DNA from: a virus
Lineage: Duplodnaviria > Caudoviricetes
Reading direction: 5' to 3' (one strand)
IMG/VR virus record: IMGVR_UViG_3300027906_000022
Location: 1 to 53,892 of that record
Length of the DNA stretch: 53,892 nt
The notes under the pieces were generated by a model. It was given only the letters and a program-made list of their open reading frames with translations, made no database searches and was not told where the DNA came from. Positions 5,001-26,013 of the stretch are shown here, in pieces. A program made the position numbers and the translations under genes. Every line of letters starts with the position of its first letter. Positions within the stretch are counted from its first letter, which is position 1.

Positions 5001-8000
5001 CTTTTAGCTTCTTTTTTTACTTCTGCTTGAGTTCTTTTTCCGCTAAATAAGTCTCTCATTAATTGTTTTTGATCTACTAGTTTAACATCTTCAGTACCAA
5101 AAAATATTTGAGATAAAGTTTGACCTGTTGGAATATATAATTGAAAACCAAGATCAACACCTGATTCACTCATTCTTATAGCAGCTAAAGTACCGTCAGG
5201 CAGTTTTAATTCACCTTTGTTATAAAGCTCTATACCTGTTTTAAGTAAGTTATAAGGCATGGATTTACTATAATCCTTGTTAACTTTATTATCTACATCA
5301 TCTGATAACCAACCTTGCATAGCTAAAGCTTTTACAGTAGGAAAAACTTCATCTACTCTTTGATCAATAGCTGCTTGAATTAATAACGTGCCTATTGTAT
5401 TTTGAGGAGTTGAATGCTCTTCTGTTCCTTTAACATTTCTTAATGGTTTACCATTAAAATCTACTTCAACTAAATATACAGGAAATAATGTTCTAAATGG
5501 AGATTGTTGAGAATTAGTTGCTTCAGCTCTAATCTCATCAAATACCCAGGCATTTTTTTCATTAGCTTTTACCTTTTTAATTTTACCATTTACTTCTACT
5601 TCAGTTTCTTCATGTAAATAAGATTCAACTGCTTTAGCAAAATCATATAATACTTCTATTTTGTCTTGCTGTCTAGTTACATAACTAGGTTTTTTTATTT
5701 CTTTAACATAAGCATCTGTTAACATTTTATTAGAAGTCATTGGTTCTCTCTTAACATTAACTTGATCACCTTGAGTAATAGAAATATTTTTATTAAAAAT
5801 ATCTGTTACACCATACGCAGATCTATCTATTCCAAACACTGTAGCTTGTTTAATAAATGTTCTAAATTCAGGATATGTATTTAAGAAATCATTTATCACC
5901 CTTGTCATACCTTCTAAAAACATTTCTCCTTCAAACGCAGCAACTTCATCAGATAAATATCTGTCTCTATCTATTATAGTTTTTTCTATACCTTCACTAA
6001 GTCTAAACTTTTTAACATCCTCCGTTAAATATTCAGCTTCTCTTGTGCTTTTTTTAGTACCACTTTCTTTAGGTAGCAATCTTGTTTTTTGCATTATTGA
6101 AGTGGTATATTGAGGAAGTTTTTCACTATATTGCACTCCCCTTCTACCGGCTCTTGTATTAGCTGTAATTTCTGCAGCTGTTTTAGAAGATTTAATTTCA
6201 CCTTTCTTAATAAGTGATTGTATTTTTTGATCTACAACTGTATTAGCTACAATAGCTCCTTTTAAGTTTGCTAAACCTATAAGCAGTCTACCAAATTCAG
6301 TTCTCGCTTTACCCTTTGGTGGAACATTAAATTCACCTTTTCCTGTTATACCTAAGTCTTTCTGTAGTTTTTTAATAGTCTCATTAGATATAGTTCCTCT
6401 AAATTCAGGTTTTAATCTTCTTACTTGTGTTTGACTAGTGCTACCTTTAGATCTTCCTTTAGGATTTGTTATAGCATCTTTTTTAGTTTCTTTATTTAAA
6501 GCTTTAGGATCAATATAATCTTCATAAAAATAATTTTGTACACTAGGAGCAATACCCAATGATCTTCCTTGTACGTCTTTATCAACTTTAGTTTCTTGAC
6601 CTTGCTTTGTTGTTACAGCTGTAGGTGTACTTATATTAAATTCAGGATATAAAGAAATTAATTTTTTAGCATCTTGAATATTTGCATAATCACCCTGTAT
6701 TCTTTCAGCTTCAGAAATTACTTTTCTACCATCAACTACTTTATTTTGTGCATACGTAAGATCAGCACCTTTTTTAAGTTTACCCGCATCTATCCCATAA
6801 ATTTCACCTGCCACTTTAGAACCATACTTGTCTGATATACTTCTAAAATCTGTAGTATAAGATCTAGACTCAGGGTTTATCACAACATCGTTTTTATCAA
6901 CTTTTATAAGATTGTCAATGTTTGTTGGTACTCCTGGTAATTTTCTTGGATCTACTAGAGATTTACCCTTACCTTCAGATTTTTTTCTTTCTTCTAAGTT
7001 TACAGCATCTTCTGCTGTTTCTTTAGCAACTAGTCTAGTTTGTTCTTGAGCTTGGCTTTGGCGTACTAACTTTTTCTTTCTTTCTATTTCTTCCCCTATT
7101 TTAGCACTACCTTCTCGACCAATAGTTTTATATATCCAGTTAGTAAACGAACCTTCTCCTGGTTTATAACTTCTAGTTACTCTGTCAAAAGCATCAACAG
7201 CAAAACCTTCTGCTTGATCTGTAGCTATATCTCCTTTTGCAATATTGAAACCCATAGCTGCTAAAGCAGTATTAAGATATTGTCTATAAAAATCAGTATC
7301 TAATATAAAACTAGCTCTTTTATCAGCCGGTAATTCTTTATATTCTATAGCTAATTCATTTATGTTTTTCTCCGATTGTTTTAAATCTTTTCCTTTATAT
7401 TCATCTATAGCTTTAATAGTTTCTTTAGAAAGTTTGCCACTTCTAAACGCAGCGTTGTTAGCCGCTAAATAGTTTAAAGCTTTTTCCGGTGTATTTAAAT
7501 TACCCGGATCAGTGGCGTTGAAAACTCTAGTAAGAAAATTATCATCTTTTTCTATTTGAACTTCATCTTCATAAGCATATAATCTTTCTTGTAGATATTT
7601 ACTATATTCATCTTCCCAAATAACTTTGTTTTCGTTGTTTATTTCTCCATATATATTATTTAAATCTAAAACAATTTCATTATGAATTCTATTTAAAGCT
7701 TTATTATCACTAGTAGCTGCTGCCTTAAATAAGTTATTAAAGTATTTAGCTTTAGCTTCTGGAGATTTCATCCTAGCATCATCCGTTATATGGCTAAATT
7801 CATGTAAAATAACTGTTCCAGCTCTTAATTCACCTTTAGCTAAATCAGCTTCCATTCCTTCTTTGTTTTGGGTTAAAATAGTTTTACCAAAAACAAGACC
7901 AAAAGTTTTATTTTCTTGTAGTTTATTTAAAGCGTCTGCAAATTCTGCTGTTCCTACCTCTAATCCTGTATCAATTAATAATTGAATACCTTTATCATCA

Positions 8001-11000
8001 TTGGTCCATTCTTCTACCTTAACGTTTTTTACATCACCTAAAATTTGTTTAGCATTTCTGTTAACATTTAATTGGGTACCGAAAGCCCTTGAAGCATCTA
8101 ACGCTTGTTTTTTCCCCCAATTACGATATATATTTTCTTTCTGTTCGTTAGTAAGTTTTTTAAATCTTTTGTCAGTAGTTAATTCACCTTCCTTATTTAA
8201 CCTTAATCCATCAACCCATTCAACCATTCGAGGATTTGACTTAGCTTTATTAATAGCATCTTGTTCAAAATCAGTTCTGGCTTTATTAATTATATATACT
8301 AGTTTATCTTTAGGGGATTTACTATCATATTCTGTATCGTTTTTTAAAGAAATATTATAACTTTTATATAAATTTCCTAAAGCATTTTTAGCAATAGTAT
8401 AATTATTATTTTTAGTAGCAGTTTCTTTTATATTATTTATTTGAGTATCTAAACTATTAAGAACTCCATCAAAATCCTTCACTTGCTGAGCTGTCATTGT
8501 TTTTTTCTTAGCCGCAATCGCTGTATCGGTTTGAGCTTTTGATAAGAAAGGATTTATACCTTCACTTACTAAAAAGTCTCTTTTAATCATTTGAGTTCCA
8601 ATTAACCTATTGATTTCTGGAGCTCCAAGGTTTAAAAGATCTATTGAGTTTTGATCAACAGCTAACCCCATTTCCTTCATTTCCTCCCCAATGTCAAACA
8701 GTAAAGCTTTTTGAACCTCTGGACTTAACTTCTTAAAAGTTTTACCTTGTAAAGTTTTAGATAAACCATTAATATTAAATCGTCTTTTAGAAATAGCTTT
8801 TTCATATTCTTTAGTTATACCCACAGCATTCAATCCACTGTAAGCAATACCAGTTCCTTGTGATAAACCAGCTGTTACTACTGTAGCCCAAAATGTTTCA
8901 TTTAAACCACTTTTAAATTCACCTTCGTCTATATCTCTACCTAATATCCCGGCTTCTGTAACAATTTGTTGTCCTCCAAAAATACTTAACTCTTCAAACA
9001 CCTCCGAACCAGTTCTAATTGCTAAAGGTTTACCAATAAGATTAGTAACTTTAGAATAATTACCTTTGAATAATTGTTCAGCTATAAGTTTTCTATTAAC
9101 TGTACTAAAATCTTTTATAAGTTTTATAGAGTTTGGTGCAGTGCCTAAATATTTAGTAAATACACCTTCTATTATACCATTGGAAAATGAGGCTGTTAAA
9201 ATTTGATTATCATTCAAACGTTTCATGGCTAAAGTCTTATCAATATCCCTCATGGCCATAGTATAATTATACTCGCTTATTTCTCCTTTAGCAAATGCTT
9301 TTTTATATATTTCTTTTTGTCTTAAGGCTTCATCATAAGCGTCAACCTGTATGTTTAAATCTCTAAACGTTTGTGTACCAGCAGTTGTCCCAAAACCTAT
9401 TCCAATAGCGTTAGAAACTGCTGCGTTGCTTAAACCTAAAGCGCTTCCTCCACCTGCTGTAGCTATAGCTAATGTTATATTAGCTGATTGTTGGCCTAAA
9501 GTTCTAGTTATATATTCTAAACTAAACTCTGGACCAGTCATTTCTTTGTAATAATTGTTTTTATCGTTTAATTGTTTTTGTTTACCAATTGCCCATTCTG
9601 AATCGAATAGTGTTGGTAAAGCTAAAAACGTAGAAGTAAAAGCATCATTAACATCTTTAACTATTAAATTCCCTAAACCATATTCTCTATGCGCTGCATC
9701 AATTATATAATCATATTGTTTTCTATCAGCTAAAGAAGCATAGAAAGCTTCAGAATTAGTAATTAATTCATCTATTGCAACTTCTCTATCTCTAGCTAAA
9801 TTATGAAAAGTACTTTGAGCACTAGCTAATTTACCAGATAAAGTTTCTATATCAGCTATCCTATCTGAGCTAGGATTTTTTTCTGTTCCTCTGATGGATA
9901 ATATAGGGCCAGTTTTAGTAGGAGAAGAGACAATAGTATAACCATCAGGTAATTCTTCCCCAATGTTATTTATTGTTTCTACAATTTCTTTTATTTTAGG
10001 TTCATAAAAAGTCTTAATATGCTCAACTTGTGCTTTTTGATCTTCCTCCTGTAATCTTTCTCCTATAAAATCCCAGGTATTTTTCATACCACCAGCGAGT
10101 TCATATGTTTCTTCAATGTCTCCTTTCTCAAACATTTCTAATACATCTTCATCTAATTTAAAATCTGTATCTTTAAATACATTTCCACCTAAATATTGTT
10201 CTATTGTTTTACCTTCTTTTAAAGCTTTTGTTTGAAGTATTTTATAAATATTGTTTGGATCATTATAAAAATTAGCTAGTTGTAATAAGTCTTTTGGTTT
10301 AGTTTCCGATAAAAAATCCCCTAAAAGACTTGTTTGACCTTGATTTATTTTATTAAAAATTAAATCGTTAATACCTTGTGATGCTAAATTTTCTAAAGCT
10401 TGGTTGTTAATTCCGGACCTTATTAATTTCTCTCTTAAACTATCATCTAAACCTTCTAATGTACTATAGTTTGTAGCTAATTGATCTATATCTTTACTGT
10501 TGGAATAAAAACCCCACATACCAGCTCGAGCAAATTTAGAAGTAGTATCTTTTTTTTGTTGTAACAAGTAATCTTTAATTGCCTCTATTTCTTCTGAAGA
10601 AAAACTCCCATTTGCTTTTAACTCTTTAATTAAATCATCTCCAAAATTATTTTCAAAATAATCTAATCTAGTTTCAGGATCATCTTTAATTTTTACAAAA
10701 TCTTGATGATTTTTAGCATCCATTATCGCCGCCATCGTAGACAAAGCTTTAAAAGATCTTTCTTGCATTTTCTTAAACTCCTCTTTAGTTATATTATTTT
10801 GGAAAAAATCATCTAAATCACCTGCTGGTAAGTTTGCTATTACTTCTCCGTCTTTCAAAACATTATATGTAGTAACTTCTTCTTCACCTCTATTCATTCC
10901 CTCCCCTACTTCTACTATATCTGTTATTTTTTCTAATTCATAAGGAGTACTATCTTTTAATAACGCATTTACAGAATTAACGTTTTTGGAATTTTCTTCT

Positions 11001-11692
11001 ATACTTTTACCTAAATTACTAGCGCTAATACCTATTATCTCATCATCAGTTTTAAGTTTTTTAGCATTTTTTAATTCTTTTAGTATTTGAATAGTTTCAT
11101 TTTTTCTTCTTTTACTAGGATCCAGTAATTCTACTAAATCTATTTCTTTATCACCTATCATAACCGAGTTACCCCAGGTTTCTCCAGCTTGAGGATCATA
11201 AAAAGGTACTTCTTTTCGTAACCAATTTACAATAGCATCTTCTTTTTGATGTAAAATTCTATCAGGATTTTCAATAGCTTGATCTAAAGTTAAAGTTGTG
11301 AGTTGGTCAGGATCGTTATTACGAGCTATAATTTGTGTTTCTAAATCTTTTCTGACTTTAGCTTCTTCTAGTCTTTGCGTGTTAAACTTACTAGAGGTAG
11401 GATTTGAAACACCATCTATATAATTGCTAGAATACTTGTCGTTATATTCTTTTTTAATATTATTTACTATTTTTGAATAACGAGAATTCGAAGCTTCCAA
11501 TTGTGATTCCAAAGATAAGGATGCTGTGTCCTCTCCCGCAGCCGCATCCAGAGCATTGGGGTCTTTCTTTACTTGTTTAACTTCTACTTTGTTAAAATAT
11601 TTAAAGTCTTCTAAACCAAGCCCTGCTTCATTAGCTAAAGCCTGGAGTTGTTCTAGAGTTAGTTTTTCTCCATTTAATATATATACTTCCAT
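2087..11692 (-). CDS. Giant (3201 aa) internal virion/ejection polyvalent protein
   Basis: Last and largest gene of the block after nozzle and GNAT; Gly/Ala-rich hydrophobic segments; HEFSH zincin motif, sigma-region-2-like segment, EEHSTP motif, HAD motifs VFDFDDT/LTAR/FADD. Confidence 0.75.
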   Translation of the reverse strand: MEVYILNGEKLTLEQLQALANEAGLGLEDFKYFNKVEVKQVKKDPNALDAAAGEDTASLSLESQLEASNSRYSKIVNNIKKEYNDKYSSNYIDGVSNPTSSKFNTQRLEEAKVRKDLETQIIARNNDPDQLTTLTLDQAIENPDRILHQKEDAIVNWLRKEVPFYDPQAGETWGNSVMIGDKEIDLVELLDPSKRRKNETIQILKELKNAKKLKTDDEIIGISASNLGKSIEENSKNVNSVNALLKDSTPYELEKITDIVEVGEGMNRGEEEVTTYNVLKDGEVIANLPAGDLDDFFQNNITKEEFKKMQERSFKALSTMAAIMDAKNHQDFVKIKDDPETRLDYFENNFGDDLIKELKANGSFSSEEIEAIKDYLLQQKKDTTSKFARAGMWGFYSNSKDIDQLATNYSTLEGLDDSLREKLIRSGINNQALENLASQGINDLIFNKINQGQTSLLGDFLSETKPKDLLQLANFYNDPNNIYKILQTKALKEGKTIEQYLGGNVFKDTDFKLDEDVLEMFEKGDIEETYELAGGMKNTWDFIGERLQEEDQKAQVEHIKTFYEPKIKEIVETINNIGEELPDGYTIVSSPTKTGPILSIRGTEKNPSSDRIADIETLSGKLASAQSTFHNLARDREVAIDELITNSEAFYASLADRKQYDYIIDAAHREYGLGNLIVKDVNDAFTSTFLALPTLFDSEWAIGKQKQLNDKNNYYKEMTGPEFSLEYITRTLGQQSANITLAIATAGGGSALGLSNAAVSNAIGIGFGTTAGTQTFRDLNIQVDAYDEALRQKEIYKKAFAKGEISEYNYTMAMRDIDKTLAMKRLNDNQILTASFSNGIIEGVFTKYLGTAPNSIKLIKDFSTVNRKLIAEQLFKGNYSKVTNLIGKPLAIRTGSEVFEELSIFGGQQIVTEAGILGRDIDEGEFKSGLNETFWATVVTAGLSQGTGIAYSGLNAVGITKEYEKAISKRRFNINGLSKTLQGKTFKKLSPEVQKALLFDIGEEMKEMGLAVDQNSIDLLNLGAPEINRLIGTQMIKRDFLVSEGINPFLSKAQTDTAIAAKKKTMTAQQVKDFDGVLNSLDTQINNIKETATKNNNYTIAKNALGNLYKSYNISLKNDTEYDSKSPKDKLVYIINKARTDFEQDAINKAKSNPRMVEWVDGLRLNKEGELTTDKRFKKLTNEQKENIYRNWGKKQALDASRAFGTQLNVNRNAKQILGDVKNVKVEEWTNDDKGIQLLIDTGLEVGTAEFADALNKLQENKTFGLVFGKTILTQNKEGMEADLAKGELRAGTVILHEFSHITDDARMKSPEAKAKYFNNLFKAAATSDNKALNRIHNEIVLDLNNIYGEINNENKVIWEDEYSKYLQERLYAYEDEVQIEKDDNFLTRVFNATDPGNLNTPEKALNYLAANNAAFRSGKLSKETIKAIDEYKGKDLKQSEKNINELAIEYKELPADKRASFILDTDFYRQYLNTALAAMGFNIAKGDIATDQAEGFAVDAFDRVTRSYKPGEGSFTNWIYKTIGREGSAKIGEEIERKKKLVRQSQAQEQTRLVAKETAEDAVNLEERKKSEGKGKSLVDPRKLPGVPTNIDNLIKVDKNDVVINPESRSYTTDFRSISDKYGSKVAGEIYGIDAGKLKKGADLTYAQNKVVDGRKVISEAERIQGDYANIQDAKKLISLYPEFNISTPTAVTTKQGQETKVDKDVQGRSLGIAPSVQNYFYEDYIDPKALNKETKKDAITNPKGRSKGSTSQTQVRRLKPEFRGTISNETIKKLQKDLGITGKGEFNVPPKGKARTEFGRLLIGLANLKGAIVANTVVDQKIQSLIKKGEIKSSKTAAEITANTRAGRRGVQYSEKLPQYTTSIMQKTRLLPKESGTKKSTREAEYLTEDVKKFRLSEGIEKTIIDRDRYLSDEVAAFEGEMFLEGMTRVINDFLNTYPEFRTFIKQATVFGIDRSAYGVTDIFNKNISITQGDQVNVKREPMTSNKMLTDAYVKEIKKPSYVTRQQDKIEVLYDFAKAVESYLHEETEVEVNGKIKKVKANEKNAWVFDEIRAEATNSQQSPFRTLFPVYLVEVDFNGKPLRNVKGTEEHSTPQNTIGTLLIQAAIDQRVDEVFPTVKALAMQGWLSDDVDNKVNKDYSKSMPYNLLKTGIELYNKGELKLPDGTLAAIRMSESGVDLGFQLYIPTGQTLSQIFFGTEDVKLVDQKQLMRDLFSGKRTQAEVKKEAKRLVKIQQKVDETFKPEAPVVITKDNTADKAMSDARNSVEYKESRKGISVFDFDDTLAQSNSKVLYTMPDGTTGTLTAGEFALEASGLTNLGAEFNFSEFNEVKEGRKGPLADLALKRQGKFGSKDIFVLTARPQSSAINIKKFLDEIGLNIPLANITGLENGTPEAKADWMVGKYADGYNDFYFADDAFKNIEAVKNVFDVLDVKSKVQQARVKFSDKLDKDFNDMIERNMGVKSEYTYSDILARRKGKNQKKWTLFIPPSADDFRGLTMYTFAGKGKRGELDQEFFDKALIKPYMAGVNAMQLAKNRIKNAYKVLQQTSPNVRKKLNKKIGGTKYTHDEAIRIYLWNKDGVTIPGLSKTDKNKIVSLVNADVDLVAFAEGVKLITKKDTYVPPNEFWDGTTIVGDLGRLAREINRKEYLKEFTDNADILFSPKNLNKIEAVYGFRIREALEDSLYRMKTGSNKQTGSSRIVNAWTTWINNSVGAIMFFNRRSALLQMLSAGNFVNWSDNNPLNAGIAFANQPQYWKDVAYLFNSPKLKARRAGLEGDINESEIAQASRQGGMQGVLSYLLKLGFTPTQIADSIAISTGGAAFYRNRINTYKKEGYTVEEAEAKAFEDFSAISDETQQSADPMLISSQQAGVLGRFVLAFQNTPMQYTRLMKKAGQDIVNGRGDIKTNLSKIVYYGFIQNLIFSALQNALFALVPGFDDEEEPDFKTDKERDAWLAKQTNQEDAKVKRIANNMIDTILRGSGVAGAVVSTIKNVILELSERTDMTALQKSRHNAELIIALTSVSPPLSSKLRKVNTALNIHDIDKDVIAERGYSVMLDDRFQLSPAYDVVGNVASGLLNIPLDRVFNEVNSITEALDNRNTDYQRIALGLGWKTWNVKAKIEEHDLIKTHAKSKRKAEGIEKGKQTRKDNKEKEKAHKRLRVQVLNALPGIMRDSIRRKEIKDKKITAIYKLNQLKAKYVE

Positions 11693-11702
11693 ATTTTATT
11701 TT

Positions 11703-13385
11703 TTAAAAGAGTGATGCTAAACTTGATGGTGGTATTGCTTGTGCGCCTATAACTTTCATTCCGTCTGTGCCTACTCTATAAACACCTGCTGGGTCTTCAC
11801 CTTTTGCTGGAAAATAAACTATTTGTTGATCGTAACCTTTTGGTTTTATCGGAACAGCAAACAGTGATCCAAGGTTTGGATTTTTTGCTTTTAAACCAGC
11901 TCTCATTCTTTCAGCAAAAGTAGGACCATCATCTTTAACAATTTTTTCTACATCATTAGTTACCCTCATATACACATCGTCACCCGCGCTATATGTTTGA
12001 CCTGCAGCATTAAGAACATTATTATCATTTAAATATTTAAGCAGTTTAGAATCTACTTTTTTTCTTACTAAACTTACTCCTTTGGTTGCGGGATCTTGCA
12101 TTCCTCCAAATATTCCTTCTTTACCAGTTAGTATATTATTTCTAATTTGTAAATTAATCCAAGTTTTTTTCTGTTCTAACGTACCTCCATCTAAAAAATC
12201 TTTTACAGAATCATAAGTTTTATTCCCCATAACAACTTTACCTGAAACATCATAATTATTAGCTAGGTTAGTTGCTATAACTGCAGTTCTATTTTCACTT
12301 AATAAAGTCGCAGTTTCTGAACTTATCATTGCATTGAATTCATCGCTATTGTTAAGTTTATTTATATCAACAATTTCATGTGATTTTATACTTACATTAT
12401 TATTAGCTAAATTTTCAGTAGTTTCATAAGTTAATATAGGTGTATCATCTTCAGTTCCTTCTCGATCTTGCCCTACGTTTGTATGAACAAACGCTTTATC
12501 CATAATATTATTATCTTTATCAGTGAACCCACTAACATGCAATACTTCATCTCTATTTAATTTTTCACCCATAGGTACAACAAAATCAAAACCTTCTTCA
12601 CCTTCGTAGGCATTAAAGTTTATCTCTCTTTCAAAAATATAATTACCATTTTCATCTTGTTTTATATTACCAGCTTCAATACCATTTTTAAGTACATCTT
12701 TAAATTTAGGATGTGCTTTCATATGTGTTATAAACGAACTGTTAGCAGGAATACTAACTTTAGAATGCAACACATTGTCATTACCTGAAACTTTAAGTGT
12801 TCGCGAAGAAGTAGCTCCGTCATAAAGAGTATTAATATCTGCCCCTGAACTTGCGTCTAATGTTATAGTGTTTAAAAGTTGTTCGCCGGTTTCCATATCA
12901 CCTATTACAGTATCTGTATTATTAGAATCTAATTTAGATTTTTTATATGCTTCTACATCCGCCAGATATCTACCCATAGTAGTTAAACTTTTGTTATTAT
13001 ACCTGCTAAAATTTGTAAGTATTTCTCTTTTAGCTTTTTCATCTTCGGGGGATAAATCTCCAAACTGTATATCTATTTGAGCTTGAGTAGCTTCTTCCCC
13101 TCTTTTTATAACTTCTGCAGACCACTGTTCATAAATACCTTTATCTTTAATTTGTTCTTCTCCTTTTAGTAATAAACCATCGACAATTTGATCATTAGCT
13201 AACATAGTTGAAACCCTATATTCATTTTTTAATTGTTTCAATTCATTAGTTTTCTTTTGATTAGCTACATAAGCGTTACCTAGTTGTGCAAACATGTTTC
13301 CAAGTGAAGTTAATCCTTGTCCACCTGGGTTAACTTCTAGTTTATTAGAGATTGTATAGTCTGCTCCTGGTATTTTATATCCCAT
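11703..13385 (-). CDS. Internal virion/ejection protein (putative)
   Basis: 560 aa; lies between the small Ala-rich ejection protein and the giant protein, like the three-gene podovirus core block. Synteny only. Confidence 0.5.
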   Translation of the reverse strand: MGYKIPGADYTISNKLEVNPGGQGLTSLGNMFAQLGNAYVANQKKTNELKQLKNEYRVSTMLANDQIVDGLLLKGEEQIKDKGIYEQWSAEVIKRGEEATQAQIDIQFGDLSPEDEKAKREILTNFSRYNNKSLTTMGRYLADVEAYKKSKLDSNNTDTVIGDMETGEQLLNTITLDASSGADINTLYDGATSSRTLKVSGNDNVLHSKVSIPANSSFITHMKAHPKFKDVLKNGIEAGNIKQDENGNYIFEREINFNAYEGEEGFDFVVPMGEKLNRDEVLHVSGFTDKDNNIMDKAFVHTNVGQDREGTEDDTPILTYETTENLANNNVSIKSHEIVDINKLNNSDEFNAMISSETATLLSENRTAVIATNLANNYDVSGKVVMGNKTYDSVKDFLDGGTLEQKKTWINLQIRNNILTGKEGIFGGMQDPATKGVSLVRKKVDSKLLKYLNDNNVLNAAGQTYSAGDDVYMRVTNDVEKIVKDDGPTFAERMRAGLKAKNPNLGSLFAVPIKPKGYDQQIVYFPAKGEDPAGVYRVGTDGMKVIGAQAIPPSSLASLF

Positions 13386-13528
13386 ATTGTTTTATTATTT
13401 AAAAAGTTTTTTTATATGCCCTATAAGCTTTTCTACTTGTATCTACATTTTTCATTAAACCTGCTTGATACATTCCAGATTTATTCATTGCATTACTAGA
13501 CCAATCCTTGTAACTCATGGGGGTATTA

Positions 13529-13554
13529 GCGCCGCCTCCGGCACCTACTTTCCC
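13529..13554 (-). other. Predicted -1 programmed ribosomal frameshift signal
   Basis: In-frame G_GGA_AAG (13554-13548) immediately before TAG, then hairpin GTGCCG-GAGG-CGGCGC; the -1 frame is open for 49 codons to TAA at 13399. Confidence 0.65.
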
Positions 13555-14318
13555 ATACCCATGGTAAAGGCAGAGCTTGCAACCCCACTAGCAACATTAC
13601 CTATTCCAGTAAATATTCCTGCAGTAGCAGCATCTCTTCTTTGTCTAGATGCATCTTCTCTTTGAGCAGCTCCAGTTTCTTTAGATATATTATAAGCAAT
13701 ATCTGCGTTATCTCTATCTTCTTGTGCTTCAAACTCAAATAATTTCCCTTGAGCATCTGCAGCTTGTTCTCTTTGACCTTCAGATATTGCAATACCTTGT
13801 AACCTTTGTTGTTCTGTTATTTGTGCTTGCATTAAGTTTTGAGCACCTTGAGCTTTTAGTTGTTCGTTTCGAGCCTCTTGTTGTTCTATACTAGCGGCTA
13901 CCCCAGACTTACTTGCTAAAGCAGCTTGTGCTAAAGCAGTTGCTCCACCCGCGCTAGCTCCTGTAGCTCTTAACATGTCTAAAGTATTAGCTAATGATAT
14001 ATCAGCTTCTTCTGCTTGAATTTCAGCAGCTTGTGTAGCAACCCCTAATTGAGCATAAGGGTTACTCATCATACCGGTTAGATCAGTTGCCATGTCAGCT
14101 AATGATGTAACACCTGCATAAGGATTTATAATTTTTTGTCTAGCATCTTGTAATTCTTTTACTTTAAACGCCGCCGCTTCTTTTGCATCTCGTGCCCTAC
14201 GCATTGATTTGTGCTCTTGGCCTGATTGTACTGCGCCTCCAACAACGGCTGCGGTTGCTGCTGTTCCTGCGGCTACTGCCCCAATCGTTAAGGCTGTTGT
14301 TGCTGATATTACTGCCAT
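13545..14318 (-). CDS. Small ejection/pilot protein (T7 gp14 / P22 gp7-like position and composition)
   Basis: Ala/Gly-rich hydrophobic N-terminus, Gln/Ala-rich helical core, Gly-rich C-terminal segment; follows the GNAT gene. Confidence 0.6.
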   Translation of the reverse strand: MAVISATTALTIGAVAAGTAATAAVVGGAVQSGQEHKSMRRARDAKEAAAFKVKELQDARQKIINPYAGVTSLADMATDLTGMMSNPYAQLGVATQAAEIQAEEADISLANTLDMLRATGASAGGATALAQAALASKSGVAASIEQQEARNEQLKAQGAQNLMQAQITEQQRLQGIAISEGQREQAADAQGKLFEFEAQEDRDNADIAYNISKETGAAQREDASRQRRDAATAGIFTGIGNVASGVASSAFTMGMGK

Positions 14319-14329
14319 ATCCTTTAATT

Positions 14330-14731
14330 TTAAATTATCACTTTTATCATTTCGTGTGATGGGGTTTTATCTATACTCCACCCTATTTTTTCATGTATTT
14401 TTAATAAGCTATTACTCCTACTTATAGACATCATGTATTTACTCCCAGCTTCTTTAACCATTTGTTCTGCTGTAAGTATTAACAGTTCTATAGCTTGTTT
14501 ACGTATTTTTTTATCTGCATTAGGATTAGATATAATCCAGTCAAGCCATACCATTTTAGAATTGCTCCAGTATAAAAATCCAGCTACTATATTTTCACCT
14601 TCATTCTCTATCATTATACCACCCGTACCATTATCCGGTAACATATCTTTTGCCATTACGGGCCAATTCCACGCTTTCCACCAGTCTGATAATATTTCAT
14701 AATCAGACTCAGTTAATGTTCTTGTATTCAT
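14330..14731 (-). CDS. GNAT-fold acetyltransferase-like morphogenesis protein
   Basis: GNAT pattern (IVAGFLY..., WIISNP, LLILTAEQMVKEAG, HEKIGW); position matches T7 gp13 / P22 gp14. Confidence 0.7.
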   Translation of the reverse strand: MNTRTLTESDYEILSDWWKAWNWPVMAKDMLPDNGTGGIMIENEGENIVAGFLYWSNSKMVWLDWIISNPNADKKIRKQAIELLILTAEQMVKEAGSKYMMSISRSNSLLKIHEKIGWSIDKTPSHEMIKVII

Positions 14732-14741
14732 TTAATTTAAT

Positions 14742-16181
14742 TTAATATGATGACTCTACAAAATCTGAAGATACAGCAAATAATTCTACTGGATTAGATC
14801 TTGATGTGTCGTCTGTTTCTATTGTGACAGTTGCATAATAACCTTTAACACCAGTCATTGCGCTACCAAAAATAACTTCACCTGTCGTTGCTGTACTATT
14901 ATTTACTAAGTTTGCAAAGTATTTTCCTTCTTTTTTAACAAAACCAGCATAACGTACGGGTTGATTAGCTAATAGCACTGCGGTTCCTGTGTTACCAGCC
15001 GAGTCATAAGCTCCATCAGTATAACTTAACACCGTGTTACAAGAATCTACTAATTCAAAAGATCTTGCGGCATCAAATTGACTCACCTCCCAACCATTAC
15101 TACCTTCGTAGTTAACTGTTTTAAATACTTTAGACAAACTCACCTCCGGATTAAAAACAAATTGTATAGAAGAATTGTATTGGGTTCCGTAAAAATTATT
15201 TCTATTAGGTGGTATAGTTGTAGTATCGTAATGTTTCCATAACCCTCCATCTTTAAAGCTATAATAATTACTTTGTAAACTGAAGATTTGATCTGGTATA
15301 TAGTTGAAAAAACTTGTCCAACCTAATACTCTTTCGTCAAAAACTAATGTAGCTGTAGAAGGAGAAGGGTTAATAGTACCATCATGTGCTTTAGGACTTT
15401 GTTGTAGTGATAATACATATTGTTTATTATATATATCATAAGCCCCTAATGCTTTTCCCGCACCCCAAGTTGTACTATCTAATACACCAAATTGATCTCT
15501 AAAATAATCAATCATTCCGTAATTAGCTATTTCTGTTATACCATCTCTAGATAATCTTAATACTGCATTTCTATTTTTATCAGTAAAATATTTTTGATAT
15601 CCATATACTGCAAAACTTTCTGGATTATTACTAATACCATATTCACCTGCATAAGGAATTATATCACCTATAACCATATTAGAAGCTGATAAACTTCCTC
15701 CACCTTCAGCATTATAAATAACATCTTTATCTATAGGTGCTCTACTAACTTTATCTTGTTGGAAAATAATCAATGCTGTATCTTCAGCATATAATTTTTG
15801 GATAGAACCGTTGATTGGATCAGCAGCTTTTGTGATATCAGTACCCACGGAGAAAACATTTGAATTGTTTATACCAGTTCGTGAGTTAAAAATACCTGAA
15901 TAAATCATAGCATTTGATCTCACAGAAGAATTAGGTTCATCTTCTACTAAATAAGCTTTAACCCCGTAGTCTACGTTAGTATTATTATAACCACCCCTTA
16001 TTCTCGCCTCTTCTATAACCCAACTATCTGCATTTACTGACGTAGCAAAAACTGGATAATGACCATCAACTCCTGTAGGTACACCAAAAGAACCATTCCA
16101 ACCCGGCGCGCTTGTTGCTGAGTCATAAGTCTTTTTCAAAAGAAAAGAATTAAAGTATTTTACTTCTATAATAGCTCCCAT
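14742..16181 (-). CDS. Tail nozzle/stabilisation protein, C-terminal part
   Basis: Propeller-like motifs GSIQKL, GEYGISNNPESFA.YG..KYFTDKNR.AVLRLSRDGITEI, GWTSFF, KEGKYF resemble crAss-like muzzle / P22 gp10-type proteins. Confidence 0.7.
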   Translation of the reverse strand: MGAIIEVKYFNSFLLKKTYDSATSAPGWNGSFGVPTGVDGHYPVFATSVNADSWVIEEARIRGGYNNTNVDYGVKAYLVEDEPNSSVRSNAMIYSGIFNSRTGINNSNVFSVGTDITKAADPINGSIQKLYAEDTALIIFQQDKVSRAPIDKDVIYNAEGGGSLSASNMVIGDIIPYAGEYGISNNPESFAVYGYQKYFTDKNRNAVLRLSRDGITEIANYGMIDYFRDQFGVLDSTTWGAGKALGAYDIYNKQYVLSLQQSPKAHDGTINPSPSTATLVFDERVLGWTSFFNYIPDQIFSLQSNYYSFKDGGLWKHYDTTTIPPNRNNFYGTQYNSSIQFVFNPEVSLSKVFKTVNYEGSNGWEVSQFDAARSFELVDSCNTVLSYTDGAYDSAGNTGTAVLLANQPVRYAGFVKKEGKYFANLVNNSTATTGEVIFGSAMTGVKGYYATVTIETDDTSRSNPVELFAVSSDFVESSY

Positions 16182-16183
16182 AT

Positions 16184-16212
16184 TATTATCACTTATTTAT
16201 TAATTTACTTAC
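16184..16212 (-). promoter_or_regulatory. Putative late promoter GTAAG-N15-GTGATAATA
   Basis: Same bipartite spacing as the sites at 32528, 39592 and 50761. Confidence 0.5.
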
Positions 16213-19200
16213 TAGGGATAAAGTACGGGTGCAGACACGGTAGTTCTAGCACCAAGTGCATTAAACGTAGCAGTATAAGATCCATCTTTAGTGTATTCCC
16301 AATTAACACTTGGTCTATAAAATGTTTTAACAACACTTCCACCAAATGTAGCTTTTGTAGTAAGGTTTAAATCAGTATATAATTGAGTTACATATTTAGT
16401 TATATGTTCTTTAGCATAATAAGTTACACCACCTACATTATATTGATATTGTTGAGGAGTAGAAACACCACCTGCATAATTATAATCCCCCATTATAAAC
16501 CCTTGACTTACATTTATATTTTTAGTAGAAGCACAATTATTCCAATTACAACCTGTTCCTTCTAACGCCCCCATTGTTATTCTATATTCGCCTGGTAAGT
16601 CAAAAGCAAAAACTCTTCTTACTCCAGACGTACTAGTTAAACTAGCTCCTAAAGTCATTTTATTTGTACCACTTGTATTAGTCATTCCTCCTTCACCTAC
16701 TGCTCCATATGAACCAGAATATGTACCACTATAATCAGATGTAGTACTTACCCCAATCAATGAATTATCAACATCTACTGCCACGGTCCAAGGGCTAGCA
16801 GAACTTGCTCTATATTCTACTGTTGCTTGTACTTCAATAGCTCCAGAAAGCCCTGTGTTACTTGATTCTCCCCAAAATTGTACGTAAAAAGCTCCTTCAC
16901 TTATACCTAAACCAGCTGACTGTTTGTCTCTAATGAAAGTGTAATCACCTGTATCACCTGGAGTTGTACAATAAAGACTGCTGTTAGTTGTAGCTGGAGC
17001 AACTAAAGAAGTTCCATATACATTAGCAGCGATTGGTCCTGTAGGTGTTGTATCTAAAGCAGTATAACTTGGGCTAAAATAATATCTTGAACCATCTCCA
17101 TCGTTCATAGGGGGAGAAGTTTGAACAAATCTACCAGGAACCTCAGGTTGACCTATTGTAATATTTAAAGTACAATCAGCTGTTAATCCACCTGCATCTG
17201 TTACTCTAGCAACTACAGCGTAAGTTGCAGCTCCAGTAGCAGCCGTAATTACACCTTGGTTAGCTACTGTTGTCATTGTAAATATACTAACTGGACTTCC
17301 TCCTTGTGTTTGAGATACAATAGACCATGTTAAGTTATCTGTATCTCTTGTGGTATCTGCAGATCCATTTTTACCTGTTAATGTAACTATAGCAGGCAAA
17401 GCATCAGTGGTTACCGTAATATTTCTTGGACATGTACCATCTATTGTAGGTGGTATATTACCTAATTGTCCTGATTGAGCTGGTGGAGTACTTTCGTCTC
17501 CACTTATATCATATGTAAAATTAAATTCATAATTACCAGTAGTAGAAGCATCAGGTCCATAATAAAATTTCTCAGCCGTTTTTAATTCATATGTATAAGG
17601 ACTTCCCGCAGATTCTACTAATGTAAATTTACTTGTAACATTTTCAGGTATTGCTTTGCTATCAAAAACACTCCATTTTCCATTTGCTGGATCAGTATCA
17701 ATTCTTGCACTAGGTATTTGAGTTCCAATAACATCTTCCCCGTAAAACGGACCAGCAACTACAGTATTAAGTGCATCATCTTCTTCTAAATTAAGTACAA
17801 ATCCTCCAGTAGACCATACTCCTCCCGTGTCTGTAGCAACCGCCGTGTTTAAATCTGATATTAAACCTGTTGTAGAAGTTTCCCAGTAAATATCTAATCT
17901 AGAAACTTCTGGTTCAGTTTCATAAATTGCTAAATATTCTATAGGATCATAAGGGCTACTTGCATCTGCTATTACTCCAAAAGCTTGAGTAGTAATTACT
18001 TGTCCTATTAAAGGATTAGATTTAGCTGTATAAAAACCCCATACATCAAGTGTATTAACTATAGTAACATCTATATCAAATAGATCTCTTAAATCTTGAA
18101 TAATACTAACTGTATCACTTAATCTTCCGGGATAAAACTGTTCGTTACCAGCTGTTGTTACCACTCCGGTCGCTGCATCATTTTGAACTCTACCAAATAA
18201 TTGTACAGAACTTCTAAATTGTTTTTGTTGTGGTCCAACTTCACTAAGATCTCTAGGAACTTTATTTATATTATCATTTATTAATACAATATTTGATAAA
18301 GCTCCACCAGTGTTTGTTCCATCAGGATTACCTTTCATCACTCCAGGTAAATATACATTATAATATTCTTGTTCTTGTTGTTTAACTACAATTTTATAAG
18401 AATACCAACCTAAAGGATTATAGTTTGCGTTAGTTTTATCTGAATTATATAAACCCGGGGTACCATTTTCTTTAGGTACTATAGCTGGAGAATCACTATT
18501 AATCGTGTCATTAAATAAAACTTTTAAAGATTCGCCTGGCCAAGCTGGAGCAACTGTATCTGCACAACCACCAGTTGCAGGGTCACAACGATAAGGACTA
18601 TAAACAGTATCAGCTCCAAATCCCCCAGCTGTTAAGCTTGCTAAACTATTAGATAATATTGTGCTTGATTGTCTACCAAATTTATCTGATAAAACAATAC
18701 CAACTTGATAATTTCTATTCTGTTTTAGAGAATGATTAGGATATTCAGTAATTGCGTGACTACTATACGCTAATGTGTTTGCTGCTTTATCAGACACACC
18801 TACTTGATAATCTAAAGAAGGAGGTGGAGTATGTTTGTCTTGAAAATTACCATATGTAATTCTATTACTTATTAACTCTTGAGCTTTAGCTCTTACAGGT
18901 ACTCTATCATATACCCTTATTAATTCATCTTCTGGTAAAGTTTTATAAGGTTTTGTAGATTCATAACTATAAATATACACATCATCCGTAAGACTAGTAT
19001 TCCATGGAGGAGCATTTTCTACTTTAATAGTATCTACTACTCTTATAGCTTGGCCATCAGATTCTTTATATAGAATATCTATTTCTGTAATTTTAATTGG
19101 GGATGTTGTTGTAGCTTGAAGAACAGCGCGGGTTGCAGGAAGAGGAATAAGTAAATCTATTTTTGTTACTTTGTTTTCCATAAAATCTACAATAGTACTT

Positions 19201-20267
19201 TCATAAGTAAGTTTTTCATCATCACTTATAAAATAACCATCTTGTTTAGGGATAAACATTGATTGAGTAAATGGTGCAAATATAGAATATTCACCATCAT
19301 CGAATTTAAATCTATAACTAAATCTTATAAATTTATCTTCTAAAAATTGAGGATCACCACCATAAGTAGCGTCTAAATAAGGGTTTGCTGTTCCATCTGG
19401 TAATGTTGTAGATGTAACATCATACATGGTAGTTTCTAATCCACCAAAAGTTAAAGCAATGTTGTTTGCTATAGTGTTAGATTTATTTGTATCAAAACTA
19501 GTAACGCTATTTATTTTTGTTACGATAGTTCCACTTTTAACACCTGTGCCTGATACACCTAGTCCTACTGCAACTACTCCCACAACATTATCTACTATAA
19601 TAGTCTTAGAATCACTAACAACACCATTAGTATCCGCCGTTATAACTGGTTGACCAGCTTGACTACTTACATTTAAAACTTCTATAGGTTGATAAGGATT
19701 ATATTTAGATACAGATATAGAATCTTCATCAGTATAATAAGTTGGTACTACATAAGCACTACCAAAGCTATTAGCTGCATCAACATTTATTTTTCTAGGT
19801 TGGTTTCTATTATCAGTCCAAAATAAAAGACCTTCAATAATATTAATCCCTATTATATGATTAGTTTGTGAGAAATTTAAAAAAGCACCTTCTACTAATA
19901 CAGCAAATTCACCACTCTGTTGGTTGTACCCCATGATATAGTTTTTTGCTGCAGGGTTATATATAATATTAGTTTCAGCTTGAGTGTCAAAATTATCTGT
20001 CCAAAAACTATATATAGTTGTGTTATTTTCATCTACAAATTCACCTATACATTTAATGTTAGCAGCACCTACAAGAGTAGAGAACTTTTGCCCGTTAAAT
20101 AATACTTCTGAGTTTCCTAAAACGTTTTCTAATGCCCCCACATCTGAACCTTCTGATCTACTGATCTGAACATTTTGCGCATCGCGATATTCTCCAGATG
20201 GTAACAGCCTGTCATCCAGGTCTTTGTTCATCTTGGACTTTATAAAAGCGTTTTTAACTTCAGCCAT
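16212..20267 (-). CDS. Tail nozzle/stabilisation protein, N-terminal part, with Ig/cadherin-like C-terminal extension
   Basis: N-terminus KMNKDLDDRLLPSGEYRDAQNV...GALENVLGN, LLFWTDNRNQPRKIN, RFSYRFKFDDGEYS; C-terminal VVARVTDAGGL cadherin-like strand. Confidence 0.72.
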   Translation of the reverse strand: MAEVKNAFIKSKMNKDLDDRLLPSGEYRDAQNVQISRSEGSDVGALENVLGNSEVLFNGQKFSTLVGAANIKCIGEFVDENNTTIYSFWTDNFDTQAETNIIYNPAAKNYIMGYNQQSGEFAVLVEGAFLNFSQTNHIIGINIIEGLLFWTDNRNQPRKINVDAANSFGSAYVVPTYYTDEDSISVSKYNPYQPIEVLNVSSQAGQPVITADTNGVVSDSKTIIVDNVVGVVAVGLGVSGTGVKSGTIVTKINSVTSFDTNKSNTIANNIALTFGGLETTMYDVTSTTLPDGTANPYLDATYGGDPQFLEDKFIRFSYRFKFDDGEYSIFAPFTQSMFIPKQDGYFISDDEKLTYESTIVDFMENKVTKIDLLIPLPATRAVLQATTTSPIKITEIDILYKESDGQAIRVVDTIKVENAPPWNTSLTDDVYIYSYESTKPYKTLPEDELIRVYDRVPVRAKAQELISNRITYGNFQDKHTPPPSLDYQVGVSDKAANTLAYSSHAITEYPNHSLKQNRNYQVGIVLSDKFGRQSSTILSNSLASLTAGGFGADTVYSPYRCDPATGGCADTVAPAWPGESLKVLFNDTINSDSPAIVPKENGTPGLYNSDKTNANYNPLGWYSYKIVVKQQEQEYYNVYLPGVMKGNPDGTNTGGALSNIVLINDNINKVPRDLSEVGPQQKQFRSSVQLFGRVQNDAATGVVTTAGNEQFYPGRLSDTVSIIQDLRDLFDIDVTIVNTLDVWGFYTAKSNPLIGQVITTQAFGVIADASSPYDPIEYLAIYETEPEVSRLDIYWETSTTGLISDLNTAVATDTGGVWSTGGFVLNLEEDDALNTVVAGPFYGEDVIGTQIPSARIDTDPANGKWSVFDSKAIPENVTSKFTLVESAGSPYTYELKTAEKFYYGPDASTTGNYEFNFTYDISGDESTPPAQSGQLGNIPPTIDGTCPRNITVTTDALPAIVTLTGKNGSADTTRDTDNLTWSIVSQTQGGSPVSIFTMTTVANQGVITAATGAATYAVVARVTDAGGLTADCTLNITIGQPEVPGRFVQTSPPMNDGDGSRYYFSPSYTALDTTPTGPIAANVYGTSLVAPATTNSSLYCTTPGDTGDYTFIRDKQSAGLGISEGAFYVQFWGESSNTGLSGAIEVQATVEYRASSASPWTVAVDVDNSLIGVSTTSDYSGTYSGSYGAVGEGGMTNTSGTNKMTLGASLTSTSGVRRVFAFDLPGEYRITMGALEGTGCNWNNCASTKNINVSQGFIMGDYNYAGGVSTPQQYQYNVGGVTYYAKEHITKYVTQLYTDLNLTTKATFGGSVVKTFYRPSVNWEYTKDGSYTATFNALGARTTVSAPVLYP

Positions 20268-20273
20268 TTAATT

Positions 20274-21512
20274 TTAGTGTTTTATCCATTTAGATTTTCC
20301 TCTCATTACTTGAGATATTTCCTCAAGTTTAATATTAGATAATCTAATTTTAGCATTTCTAAGTTTACTACTTCTTTCTCTTTTTAATCTTTGTACAATA
20401 TATTCAGGTTGATTTATTCTCGATGCTATAACCGCGTGAGACATGTGAGCATATAAAGCTTCTTCTGCCATTTTAGGTATTCTACTATCTAACTCATAAG
20501 CTAAACCATCTGAAACATATTCAAAAATAATTAATTGTCCTACTAAATTACTTGAAAAAGCTATTTTACCTTCTCTTTCATTTAAATTAAACCAACCATT
20601 CATGTTAGCAGTTTTAGGATCCATACCGTATAGTTGCCCATAAGCCATATACCAGTAACCACCGTTACCCCAATCATAACCCCACCAATCTAATCCTTGA
20701 TTAAATTCACTACTGTTAAATTCTTGGTTTATTAAATTTGTATTCGCCTCTGCCCATCGTTCTTCTGTAATAGAAGGAGTTTGTATATTATCATCATCAC
20801 CTGCTTGTACAGGAACCCCTAAGTTATCTTGAGCTGGAATTTCATAAGGACTATCAGTAAGATTATTTGTAGGATATATAGGGTGTAAAACACCTAGTTG
20901 ATCTATCCAAGATACTTTTACATAGTTAACATAATCTTGTGGTAAAGCTAATCCTAAGCTTGGAGGGATTGTAAGCTCTTGAGATTTTATACTTTTTAAA
21001 GTATCATAACTAAATTCTTGTAAACCTCTTTTAGCATGAAAAATAAGATCAGTTCTTTTAACACTAGGAATAAGTTTTCCTGCACCTACATATGCTACTA
21101 TAAAATTATTTATAACATCATTTAAAGTAACATAAGCATAGCTTCCATAATTATTTTCAACAGTTGTACCGTAAGCATCTTTGTCACCGTAATTCCCACC
21201 AGTTAAGCTTGTTAATTGACATACTATAGTCATGTTTTGAGCTAGTGGAGCTCCTAATGTAATAGTATTACCCACTAATGTATATGCTGTTATATATTCA
21301 GTATATGTAAACCCGTCCGGACTAGTATAAAGTTTGAAGTTATTTAAACCATAATCATCACTAGTAGGATCATAGTTAGCTAATTTTAAATCAGTATCAA
21401 AAGTAAAAGTAAAAATACTTTGACCCGCTATATCTGTAACTACAAAGCCTTGAGCTCCTGCGTAATATTGTCTGTTAGTTTCGGTTATTAAACCGCCATC
21501 TGGAATAGCCAT
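20274..21512 (-). CDS. Tail ring/adaptor structural protein
   Basis: HAKRGLQEFSYD and LPQDYVNYVKVSW motifs; neck position between capsid and nozzle genes. Confidence 0.6.
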   Translation of the reverse strand: MAIPDGGLITETNRQYYAGAQGFVVTDIAGQSIFTFTFDTDLKLANYDPTSDDYGLNNFKLYTSPDGFTYTEYITAYTLVGNTITLGAPLAQNMTIVCQLTSLTGGNYGDKDAYGTTVENNYGSYAYVTLNDVINNFIVAYVGAGKLIPSVKRTDLIFHAKRGLQEFSYDTLKSIKSQELTIPPSLGLALPQDYVNYVKVSWIDQLGVLHPIYPTNNLTDSPYEIPAQDNLGVPVQAGDDDNIQTPSITEERWAEANTNLINQEFNSSEFNQGLDWWGYDWGNGGYWYMAYGQLYGMDPKTANMNGWFNLNEREGKIAFSSNLVGQLIIFEYVSDGLAYELDSRIPKMAEEALYAHMSHAVIASRINQPEYIVQRLKRERSSKLRNAKIRLSNIKLEEISQVMRGKSKWIKH

Positions 21513-21518
21513 ATTTTA

Positions 21519-22319
21519 TTAACTTTTTTGATTAACTTCTGTAGCTTGTTCTTCAGCTGCAGCTACTTGAATAAGTTGAGGGTCTTTTATAACAACACCA
21601 GCATATAGTAAGATTTTAACTATTAATGAAGTTTGTTCTGATTCAGATAATTCAAAATTTTGTGATATTGCTGAGTCATAAATGTATTGTTGTACCGGTC
21701 CTACGGAATATCCCCATATTACATTTCTAGGTTTTCTTACAAAATCTACAGTAACATCCCCATTAGTATTAATACCACTAGGACTAATATATAGTTTGTT
21801 ATTCTCATATAAATATGTAGGAAAAGTTTGTGTTGCTTGAGTTAATTTTGATCTTTCTGTTTCGTAGTAATCACTTCTTTGAAGTCTTTGTATTTCTACG
21901 GGAATACCTCTGGGTATATTATAAACCACTGGGCCTAATCTATAGAAAGATAATATTGAGGAAGGATATGGAGGTGTTGTAGGTTCTACACCTGTGTATA
22001 TAATCGTATTATTATAAGTATCAACAGCCGGTAAAACCCAAAAAGGATTGTTAGGTGTTGTTGTATTATCATATGTAGCATCTCCAAAAGTTTTAAATAT
22101 AGAAATTCTTTCATCTATATTTTCTATCCTATCAGAATAATCTACATCAGCTTGTGGCACACGTAATTGTTGATTTAAATCATCAAAGTATTGTTCGAAT
22201 ATATCTAATTGCACCTGAGTACCAATTTTGTTGAACTCATCTGGGGTTATATAACCTCGTTGTTCTTTATTAAGTATTGTTAATACTGTTTGATATACCG
22301 TGTTTACGTTTATTGCCAT
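21519..22319 (-). CDS. Head-tail adaptor/tail tubular ring protein
   Basis: ILNKEQRGYITPDEFN N-terminal motif; neck position. Confidence 0.6.
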   Translation of the reverse strand: MAINVNTVYQTVLTILNKEQRGYITPDEFNKIGTQVQLDIFEQYFDDLNQQLRVPQADVDYSDRIENIDERISIFKTFGDATYDNTTTPNNPFWVLPAVDTYNNTIIYTGVEPTTPPYPSSILSFYRLGPVVYNIPRGIPVEIQRLQRSDYYETERSKLTQATQTFPTYLYENNKLYISPSGINTNGDVTVDFVRKPRNVIWGYSVGPVQQYIYDSAISQNFELSESEQTSLIVKILLYAGVVIKDPQLIQVAAAEEQATEVNQKS

Positions 22320-22345
22320 ATTTCTTTAATTTAGATCTATACATC

Positions 22346-22365
22346 AAGGCGACAAAAGCCGCCTT
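22346..22365 (-). other. Intergenic GC-rich hairpin
   Basis: AAGGCGGC-TTTT-GTCGCCTT (8 bp, one G-U); no U-tract follows, so not called a terminator. Confidence 0.5.
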
Positions 22366-22382
22366 AATATATAATCACTTGT

Positions 22383-23210: not shown

Positions 23211-23234
23211 GATATAATATAATTTAATAGTTTT

Positions 23235-23276: not shown

Positions 23277-23286
23277 TATAAAGTGA

Positions 23287-24735: not shown

Positions 24736-24753
24736 AATAATTATAAATTTTAA

Positions 24754-25989: not shown

Positions 25990-26013
25990 AATATAATATT
26001 ATAAAATTAGTAA

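Follow-up and report, generated by a model that had tools for sequence, protein, structure and literature searches.

Does the minus-strand gene at 13545..14318 of the virus record IMGVR_UViG_3300027906_000022 end at its stop codon, or is part of its product encoded beyond it? The window, by which we mean the whole stretch of 53,892 nucleotides (nt) analysed, is this entire IMG/VR record, linear and about 83% complete. The large open reading frames (ORFs) of the surrounding block all lie on the minus strand and are tightly packed, yet the gene, which encodes a protein of 257 amino acids (aa), is followed by 159 nt without an annotated ORF. This is the largest gap between same-strand ORFs in the block 2087..31458, where the others measure at most about 76 nt; a first-pass annotation had rightly singled it out as the only large one, and had proposed that it is filled by a -1 frameshift. 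We arrive at the same reading, with a probability of roughly 85% judged from the sequence features described below: a marine podovirus uses programmed -1 ribosomal frameshifting at the 3' end of one of its virion-protein genes.

The slippery site and the open -1 frame

On the minus strand the ORF ends ...ACC ATG GGT ATG GGA AAG TAG GTG CCG GAG GCG GCG CTA ATA CCC CCA TGA. The heptamer G_GGA_AAG (13554..13548) stands in the X_XXY_YYZ register of the 0 frame, as the first-pass annotation had it, and the 0-frame stop TAG (13547..13545) follows directly, a "shifty stop" context. A -1 slip at this heptamer leaves the encoded Gly and Lys unchanged. Immediately downstream lies a GC-rich hairpin, which had been described as GTGCCG-GAGG-CGGCGC; these letters are present at 13544..13529, and RNAfold lengthens the structure to 7 pairs (13545..13528) within a 45-nt fold of -13.3 kcal/mol. 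The core stem, which starts 5 nt after the heptamer, pairs 13542-13539 with 13534-13531 around a GAGG loop (13538-13535).

The -1 frame extension (13399..13548, minus strand) comprises 49 codons (13548..13402) and a TAA stop (13401..13399). Its translation reproduces exactly the 49-aa peptide quoted in the first pass, and 13 nt separate its stop from the ATG at 13385 of the next gene. From the ORF and the -1 translation we computed the two products that had been predicted, a short isoform of 257 aa and a trans-frame isoform of 306 aa (257 + 49) with a basic tail; the added part is predicted to form a Gly-rich linker followed by a basic, aromatic-containing tail.

In the mechanism that we propose, most ribosomes would read ATG GGA AAG and stop at TAG to give the 257-aa protein, and a fraction would slip back one base on G_GGA_AAG. 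Either tRNA-Gly would re-pair from GGA to GGG together with tRNA-Lys from AAG to AAA, or tRNA-Lys would slip alone while TAG waits in the A site. The small GC hairpin, with its core 5 nt downstream, would aid the slip, and the slipped ribosomes would read 49 more codons in the -1 frame to give the 306-aa isoform. That ribosomes slip here, and at what rate, we infer from this arrangement; the two isoforms would then set the ratio of tailed to untailed subunits.

Conservation of the signal among relatives

The 257-aa protein of the window (P0001) has more than 6800 relatives among metagenome proteins. Loci were fetched in sets of 8, 80 and 80, the IMG/VR set being the best 80 of 538 relatives, and the homologous frame was located by tblastn in 168 loci and the window. 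We kept 150 distinct loci in which the 0-frame stop is included; six end before the stop, and duplicates were merged. Where the gap to the next long ORF is at least 59 nt, an in-frame X_XXY_YYZ heptamer lies within 9 nt of the stop in 24 of 31 loci (21 GGGAAAN, 2 AAAAAAG in L030 and L105, and 1 GGGTTTC). Among the loci with smaller gaps any such heptamer is found in 5 of 106 and GGGAAAN in 0 of 106 (Fisher p 6e-16 for heptamer versus gap, with the 59-nt cut picked after the table had been seen). Three more heptamer loci end before the next gene, which brings the total to 27. In these 27 distinct loci, at 50-82% protein identity, the heptamer and an open -1 frame recur, and the hairpin recurs in most; the conservation in homologues on which the first pass had made its proposal depend is thus borne out. 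The background is low, with 1 GGGAAAN among 33,511 in-frame positions of gene bodies.

At the heptamer loci 16-50 codons of the -1 frame are free of stops, in AT-rich DNA, and the frame ends mostly 1-45 nt before the next start, running 11 and 29 nt past it in two; the +1 frame is closed within 2-9 codons in most. Among the large-gap loci the heptamer is missing from L013, from L161 with its premature stop, from L160 (GGGAGAG) and from the four +1-type loci taken up below. L013 (gap 359) has a gene that ends prematurely, with remnants of a C-terminal domain ("DVEFKRIS") in a different frame, and in L161 an in-frame TGA falls inside the core while the frame continues beyond it; both are probably broken copies or assembly errors.

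Judging from the bases around it, the heptamer is conserved at the nucleotide rather than the amino-acid level. The codon before GGA ends in G in all 25 GGG-type sites (GCG, CCG, GTG, ATG, TCG and others), in genes where G makes up only 10.8% of third positions. The heptamer ends in G at 19 of 27 sites, against 35 AAG and 245 AAA codons in gene bodies, and the third encoded residue varies between K and N while GGGAAA stays fixed. The 0-frame stop is TAG in 21 of the 27 frameshift-type loci versus 13 of 123 other loci. The G+C content of the 24 nt after the heptamer is 53%, compared with 37% for the rest of the extension and 41% for the gene body.

For the hairpin we used a positional stem test in place of folding-energy z-scores. 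A stem of at least 4 base pairs (bp), with at least 3 G-C pairs and starting 4-8 nt after the heptamer, is present in 20 of 26 loci. Gene-body anchors pass the same test in 122 of 5555 cases (2.2%) and non-frameshift stops in 1 of 123; when the 35 nt concerned were shuffled 300 times, on average 1.3 and at most 6 of 26 passed. In a covariation set of 13 loci, 50 of 52 cells of the four core pairs are base-paired, and each pair shows changes on both sides (stem variants GCCG/CGGC, GGGA/TCCC, GGCA/TGCC, CCCG/CGGG and GGGG/CCCC). The covariation score is 0.56 versus 0.24 in shuffles, none of 500 of which reach it, and sliding the partner gives at most 0.28. The codon changes at the paired positions (Ala/Gly, Gly/Pro, Gly/Ala and Pro/Gly) fit base pairing better than protein constraint, though the two are not fully separable. 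An H-type pseudoknot between the loop and the downstream run, raised in the first pass on account of a CCCCC run, was tried on the same 13 loci and rejected: 55.8% of cells are paired, about the shuffled or chance level, and 10 of 13 cells are unpaired at one of the pairs.

Taken together, the counts for heptamer, gap, hairpin and nucleotide constraint exclude chance. By the sequence, the canonical components of a -1 signal are all in place: an in-frame heptamer, a stem about 5 nt downstream, and an open and constrained -1 frame.

The extension and the competing explanations

The extension behaves as a continuation of the protein. In P0005, a relative of 295 aa that is 83% identical and was found on 3 contigs, it is fused in frame to the core at the same G-K junction. 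The P0005 tail (residues 258-292) matches the -1 peptide of the window (P0002) at 17 of 45 positions (E 7e-5), in an alignment that covers both the Gly-rich start and the basic, aromatic end. Between the window and L092, whose cores are 81% identical, the extensions differ by 7 synonymous codons, 5 non-synonymous ones and an in-frame indel, and the differences are distributed over the three codon positions as 2/4/9. Of the 26 long forms, 20 have an aromatic residue among the last six; for the short forms the count is 5 of 27, and for relatives without the frameshift 57 of 106. Distant extensions look modular. A search for longer proteins containing the extension returned no scored match, and tblastn of P0001 and the extension against a phage collection (E 1e-5, 1 and 5) found none, a result that is uninformative since the Ala/Gln-rich query was probably masked. 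The frameshift proposed in the first pass is supported by the association of heptamer and gap, the constraint on the nucleotides, the positioned stem and the fused homologue P0005.

The explanation that comes nearest to mimicking this layout is a one-base deletion that left an in-frame tail decaying behind an incidental heptamer, with no long isoform made. In-frame forms such as P0005 do exist, extensions evolve fast, architectures switch often, and in L160 the heptamer is mutated to GGGAGAG, all of which a remnant would accommodate. We nevertheless consider it quite unlikely, given that the heptamer is under nucleotide-level constraint in 27 distinct loci, that the -1 frames remain open over 16-50 codons of AT-rich DNA and end mostly just before the next gene, and that the hairpin is position-specific. 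Alternatively, the extension could be a small gene of 39 aa, translated independently or by reinitiation from the ATG at 13518, which the first pass had named as the outcome that would undo its proposal. This ATG occurs at extension codon 10 in both the window and L092, but 14 of 26 complete extensions lack any ATG, GTG or TTG, and L141 has just 2 open codons of the -1 frame ahead of the heptamer, with no start inside. Moreover, in the ten codons that precede the ATG the window and L092 differ at four positions, all of them synonymous third positions of the -1 frame. With the tail also fused to the core in P0005, separate translation is very unlikely.

It is likewise very improbable that the gap is an RNA element, its hairpin serving as a terminator or in stability or coupling, and the open -1 frame a by-product. 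A conserved GC hairpin directly after the stop and a -1 stop only 13 nt before the next ATG would suit such an element. No T-run follows the stem, though; a scan of the gap found no terminator-like or promoter-like site on this strand, and the gap has no Rfam match. An RNA element would also leave the in-frame heptamer, the frame-specific openness and the fused homologue unexplained. Extremely improbable, finally, is an assembly or sequencing indel, or a TAG read as an amino acid, for which we found no supporting point. Contigs from two other studies, X7 over 13269-13692 and X2 over 13507-13750, show 0 differences and 0 gaps, so that at the contig level the indel check called for in the first pass came out clean; X1 may be the source sample, and run X6 has no contig across 13505-13589. 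P0001 was found on 4 contigs, and the layout is common to many independent loci. Readthrough of TAG in the 0 frame ends at a TGA after 10 codons, and translation table 11 leaves the window's long ORFs unbroken, so stop reassignment is not the explanation.

Several observations do weigh against a programmed frameshift. Six of the 26 loci lack a stem of the kind described, the hairpin core is only 4 bp in most loci, and the minimum free energy of the 45 nt after the heptamer is not distinctive (mean z -0.83 for 26 loci versus -0.55 for 106 controls). The 13 loci behind the covariation score were chosen by eye for a tetraloop hairpin, and the stem overlaps a conserved Gly-rich peptide motif, so that RNA and peptide constraints are partly confounded. 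Past the first ~10 residues the extensions diverge fast, most pairs sharing 9-20 identical residues, and the tail is modelled as disordered, which leaves a sequence-specific function for it unproven. A FastTree phylogeny of the cores requires 16 changes of the frameshift layout, with well-supported branches forcing at least 11 of these, and close relatives do without it; only these frameshift-label counts are usable, since the "short" label of the tree includes several relatives with a long C-terminal domain that the motif regular expression missed. Such frequent changes of layout indicate that the C-terminal cassette turns over often. Rare read-level variants are compatible with the contig evidence. 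The case for frameshifting and its efficiency is also one from sequence rather than from protein or ribosome profiling.

Four loci point to a second way of reaching a tail. In L031/L036 and L086/L148 the gene ends ...GCC TTT GGG TAA, and the +1 frame is open for 21 and 39-40 codons, respectively, as far as the next gene; these frames seem to encode a tail homologous to those that other loci have in the -1 frame. L031 has a +1-frame tail whose end is like that of the -1 tail in L046. In L160 (GGGAGAG), too, the +1 frame holds a tail that resembles the one read in -1 in L078; L160 may be a decayed or differently decoded site. A GGG TAA ending is also seen in L171-L173 and L179. A pattern scan for more +1-type loci returned the known lineages and unrelated chance matches only. 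In these two lineages tRNA-Gly might shift by +1, from GGG to GGU, ahead of the stop. In structural genes of Listeria phage PSA a +1 frameshift takes place at a Pro codon before the stop. The likeness lies in a codon whose tRNA could re-pair one base forward (GGG to GGU) just ahead of a stop; the site is CCC_UGA in PSA and GGG_TAA here, where the proposal concerns two lineages and sequence only. Tentatively, and with some doubt, the C-terminal tail of this widespread marine phage family might be regarded as a recoding cassette, in which homologous tails are reached by a -1 slip (at GGGAAAN, AAAAAAG or GGGTTTC with a hairpin), by a +1 shift at GGG_TAA, or in frame as in P0005, and that has been gained or lost at least 11 times. 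Were this so, there would be selection on the ratio of tailed to untailed subunits in ejection or plug assembly, and a second, rarer type of frameshift would exist in the same gene.

Genomic setting, protein identity and known systems

The window sequence occurs in marine metagenomes. Upstream of the gene, proteins of 1351 and 479 aa match phrog_14478 "virion structural protein", and the 479-aa protein (14742..16181, minus strand) carries a crAss muzzle C-terminal domain (Pfam PF25729, crAss_MUZ_C, 1.6e-14). The order is this muzzle-domain protein, a 133-aa protein (phrog_17252), the 257-aa gene, a 560-aa ORF (11703..13385, minus strand) that has no PHROG or Pfam match, and an ORF of 3201 aa (2087..11692, minus strand). 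The latter, for which there is no Pfam match, is placed like the giant structural or RNA-polymerase-like proteins of related phages, and its synteny extends to NC_055853.1, MW202828.1 and crAss001. The order muzzle, small proteins, giant protein is also seen in Bacteroides phage crAss001, Flavobacterium phage elemoF_6-3D and the uncultured record MW202828.1; in crAss001 it reads gp44 (muzzle), gp45 and gp46 (cargo proteins C1 and C2) and gp47 (RNA-polymerase subunit).

The large terminase is the 736-aa ORF at 28423..30633. Its closest record is MW202828.1 (61.5%), and further matches are to 68 Flavobacterium (Elemovirus, 44%), 15 Cellulophaga, 2 Tenacibaculum and 1 Maribacter phage records. 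The muzzle domain is a Crassvirales hallmark, yet the nearest cultured terminase relatives, the Elemovirus Flavobacterium phages, are not classified in Crassvirales. Judged by these matches, the phage is a marine podovirus with a crAss-type muzzle domain whose nearest cultured relatives by terminase are the Elemovirus Flavobacterium phages; its terminase relatives suggest a host among the Flavobacteriia. The positional counterparts of the 257-aa gene in NC_055853.1 and MW202828.1 have no detectable homology to it, and there is no gap there; no cultured phage carrying the site was found. Elsewhere in the window, where no tRNA genes were found, 37646-39211 (minus strand) encodes a GroEL-like chaperonin (Cpn60_TCP1, 6.2e-59), and GroEL and GroES are also annotated in related Flavobacterium phage records. 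Two further minus-strand proteins, of 944 aa (41298-44132) and 830 aa (44597-47089), have a Peptidase_S74 domain near the C-terminus (1.1e-9 and 6.7e-9) and are probably tail fibres or spikes.

In the 257-aa protein a hydrophobic N-terminus rich in Gly and Ala is accompanied by long helices and by another hydrophobic, Gly-rich stretch close to the C-terminus. The protein falls into no Pfam or PHROG family, and sequence and profile searches of the PDB gave chance-level matches only. AlphaFold2 predicts P0005, with low confidence (mean pLDDT 60.3, pTM 0.25), to be helical throughout apart from a disordered tail. The nearest named clusters in the ESM Atlas are T7_gp14 (0.94; 18% of members carry the Pfam family) and P22_gp7 (0.90), which we take as leads only; the T7_gp14 (PF24072) and P22_gp7 (PF25688) hidden Markov models (HMMs), run over all six frames of the window with E allowed up to 10, matched nothing. 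Profile comparison by hhalign (A3) with the crAss001 cargo proteins gave probabilities of 0.57% for gp45 and 0.17% for gp46, the best local match being between the hydrophobic-then-basic N-terminus and gp45 residues 143-169, its predicted membrane helix region. PHROG relatives of the neighbouring genes are labelled virion structural proteins. The label "ejection protein" given in the first pass thus agrees with gene order, architecture and the language-model lead, and finds no backing in the HMM and hhalign comparisons. From position and architecture we put the odds that this is an internal or ejected virion protein at about even.

Relatives of 313-351 aa (P0012, P0068, P0111 and others) have the same core with an in-frame C-terminal domain of about 75 aa, and phrog_6121 "virion structural protein" matches these longer relatives at 3.8e-10. 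Against Peptidase_S74 (PF13884) the last 73 aa of P0068 reach 17 bits (E 0.0074), short of the 22-bit cut-off, and the whole 313-351 aa relatives gave no match to it. Among the 120 nearest protein clusters, 28 have an S74-like C-terminal motif and 20 end in G-K or G-N. A Peptidase_S74-type domain is usually found on trimeric fibres and would be unexpected on an ejection-type protein.

Precedents for the mechanism are at hand. The slippery site of lambda G-T is GGGAAAG. With lambda G/gpGT our locus shares this heptamer, read as G_GGA_AAG near the end of the upstream frame, and a longer isoform of a morphogenetic protein that would be the minor one. The lambda protein is a tail chaperone of long-tailed phages, of another family and role, whereas here the stop comes directly after the heptamer, the hairpin is small and GC-rich, and the tail is short and variable (16-50 aa). 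Slippage in lambda is about 3.5% (Xu, Hendrix and Duda 2004, as cited in the accessible part of PMC9965538). According to the same part of that source, -1 frameshifts are known in podovirus capsid genes, those of T7/T3 (gene 10A/10B) and of Kuravirus-like phages; the shift in the Kuravirus-like major capsid gene depends on GGGAAAG near the natural stop and yields a -1 isoform in part of the copies, and the long form is lost in SU10 (PMC9965538). The window gene resembles these in being a podovirus structural gene with GGGAAAG close to its stop (as in the Kuravirus-like case), in the extended isoform predicted as the minor one, and in the loss of the layout in some relatives. It differs in that those are major capsid proteins extended by a large domain, while the present gene lies between the muzzle and the giant virion protein and its tail is short.

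The frameshift of E. coli dnaX yields a truncated product, with a contribution from a Shine-Dalgarno-like element upstream, whereas here the shift would extend the protein. A heptamer with a simple hairpin a few nt downstream is found in dnaX too (PMC6787027), and L030 and L105 use the A_AAA_AAG of dnaX itself. The crAss001 proteins gp45 and gp46 are alike in their position after the muzzle gene and before the giant RNA-polymerase-like protein, and gp45 also in a Gly-rich hydrophobic segment followed by a basic patch, as at its residues 143-169; neither they nor T7 gp14 and P22 gp7 show sequence homology to our protein by HMM or hhalign.

Full-text literature on crAss-like phages, Crassvirales and ejection proteins yielded no report of a frameshift in ejection or cargo proteins. 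Such a site is absent from the portions of 10.64898/2026.08.21.746148 and PMC10028833 that were available, and the available portion of the PRFect paper makes no mention of crAss phages, podoviruses or the GGGAAAG heptamer. The first-pass remark that frameshifting had not been described for podovirus ejection proteins fits this literature, as far as the accessible texts go, yet capsid genes of podoviruses were already known to shift by -1 at GGGAAAG. What is new is not the mechanism, which is canonical, but its host: for this gene family and position we found no prior report.

Gene callers terminate this gene at its TAG, so that the 159 nt beyond appear as a "gap", and they do likewise in many related marine phage contigs; the long isoform is consequently missing from annotation and from the databases used in metaproteome searches. 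The family also offers natural variants of minimal bacterial frameshift signals in Bacteroidota-type hosts: four types of heptamer are represented, stems vary by compensatory changes, and the tail occurs both fused and unfused. If the protein belongs to the ejection apparatus, a fixed tailed minority would bear on how internal proteins are stored or anchored in podoviruses with a crAss-type muzzle.

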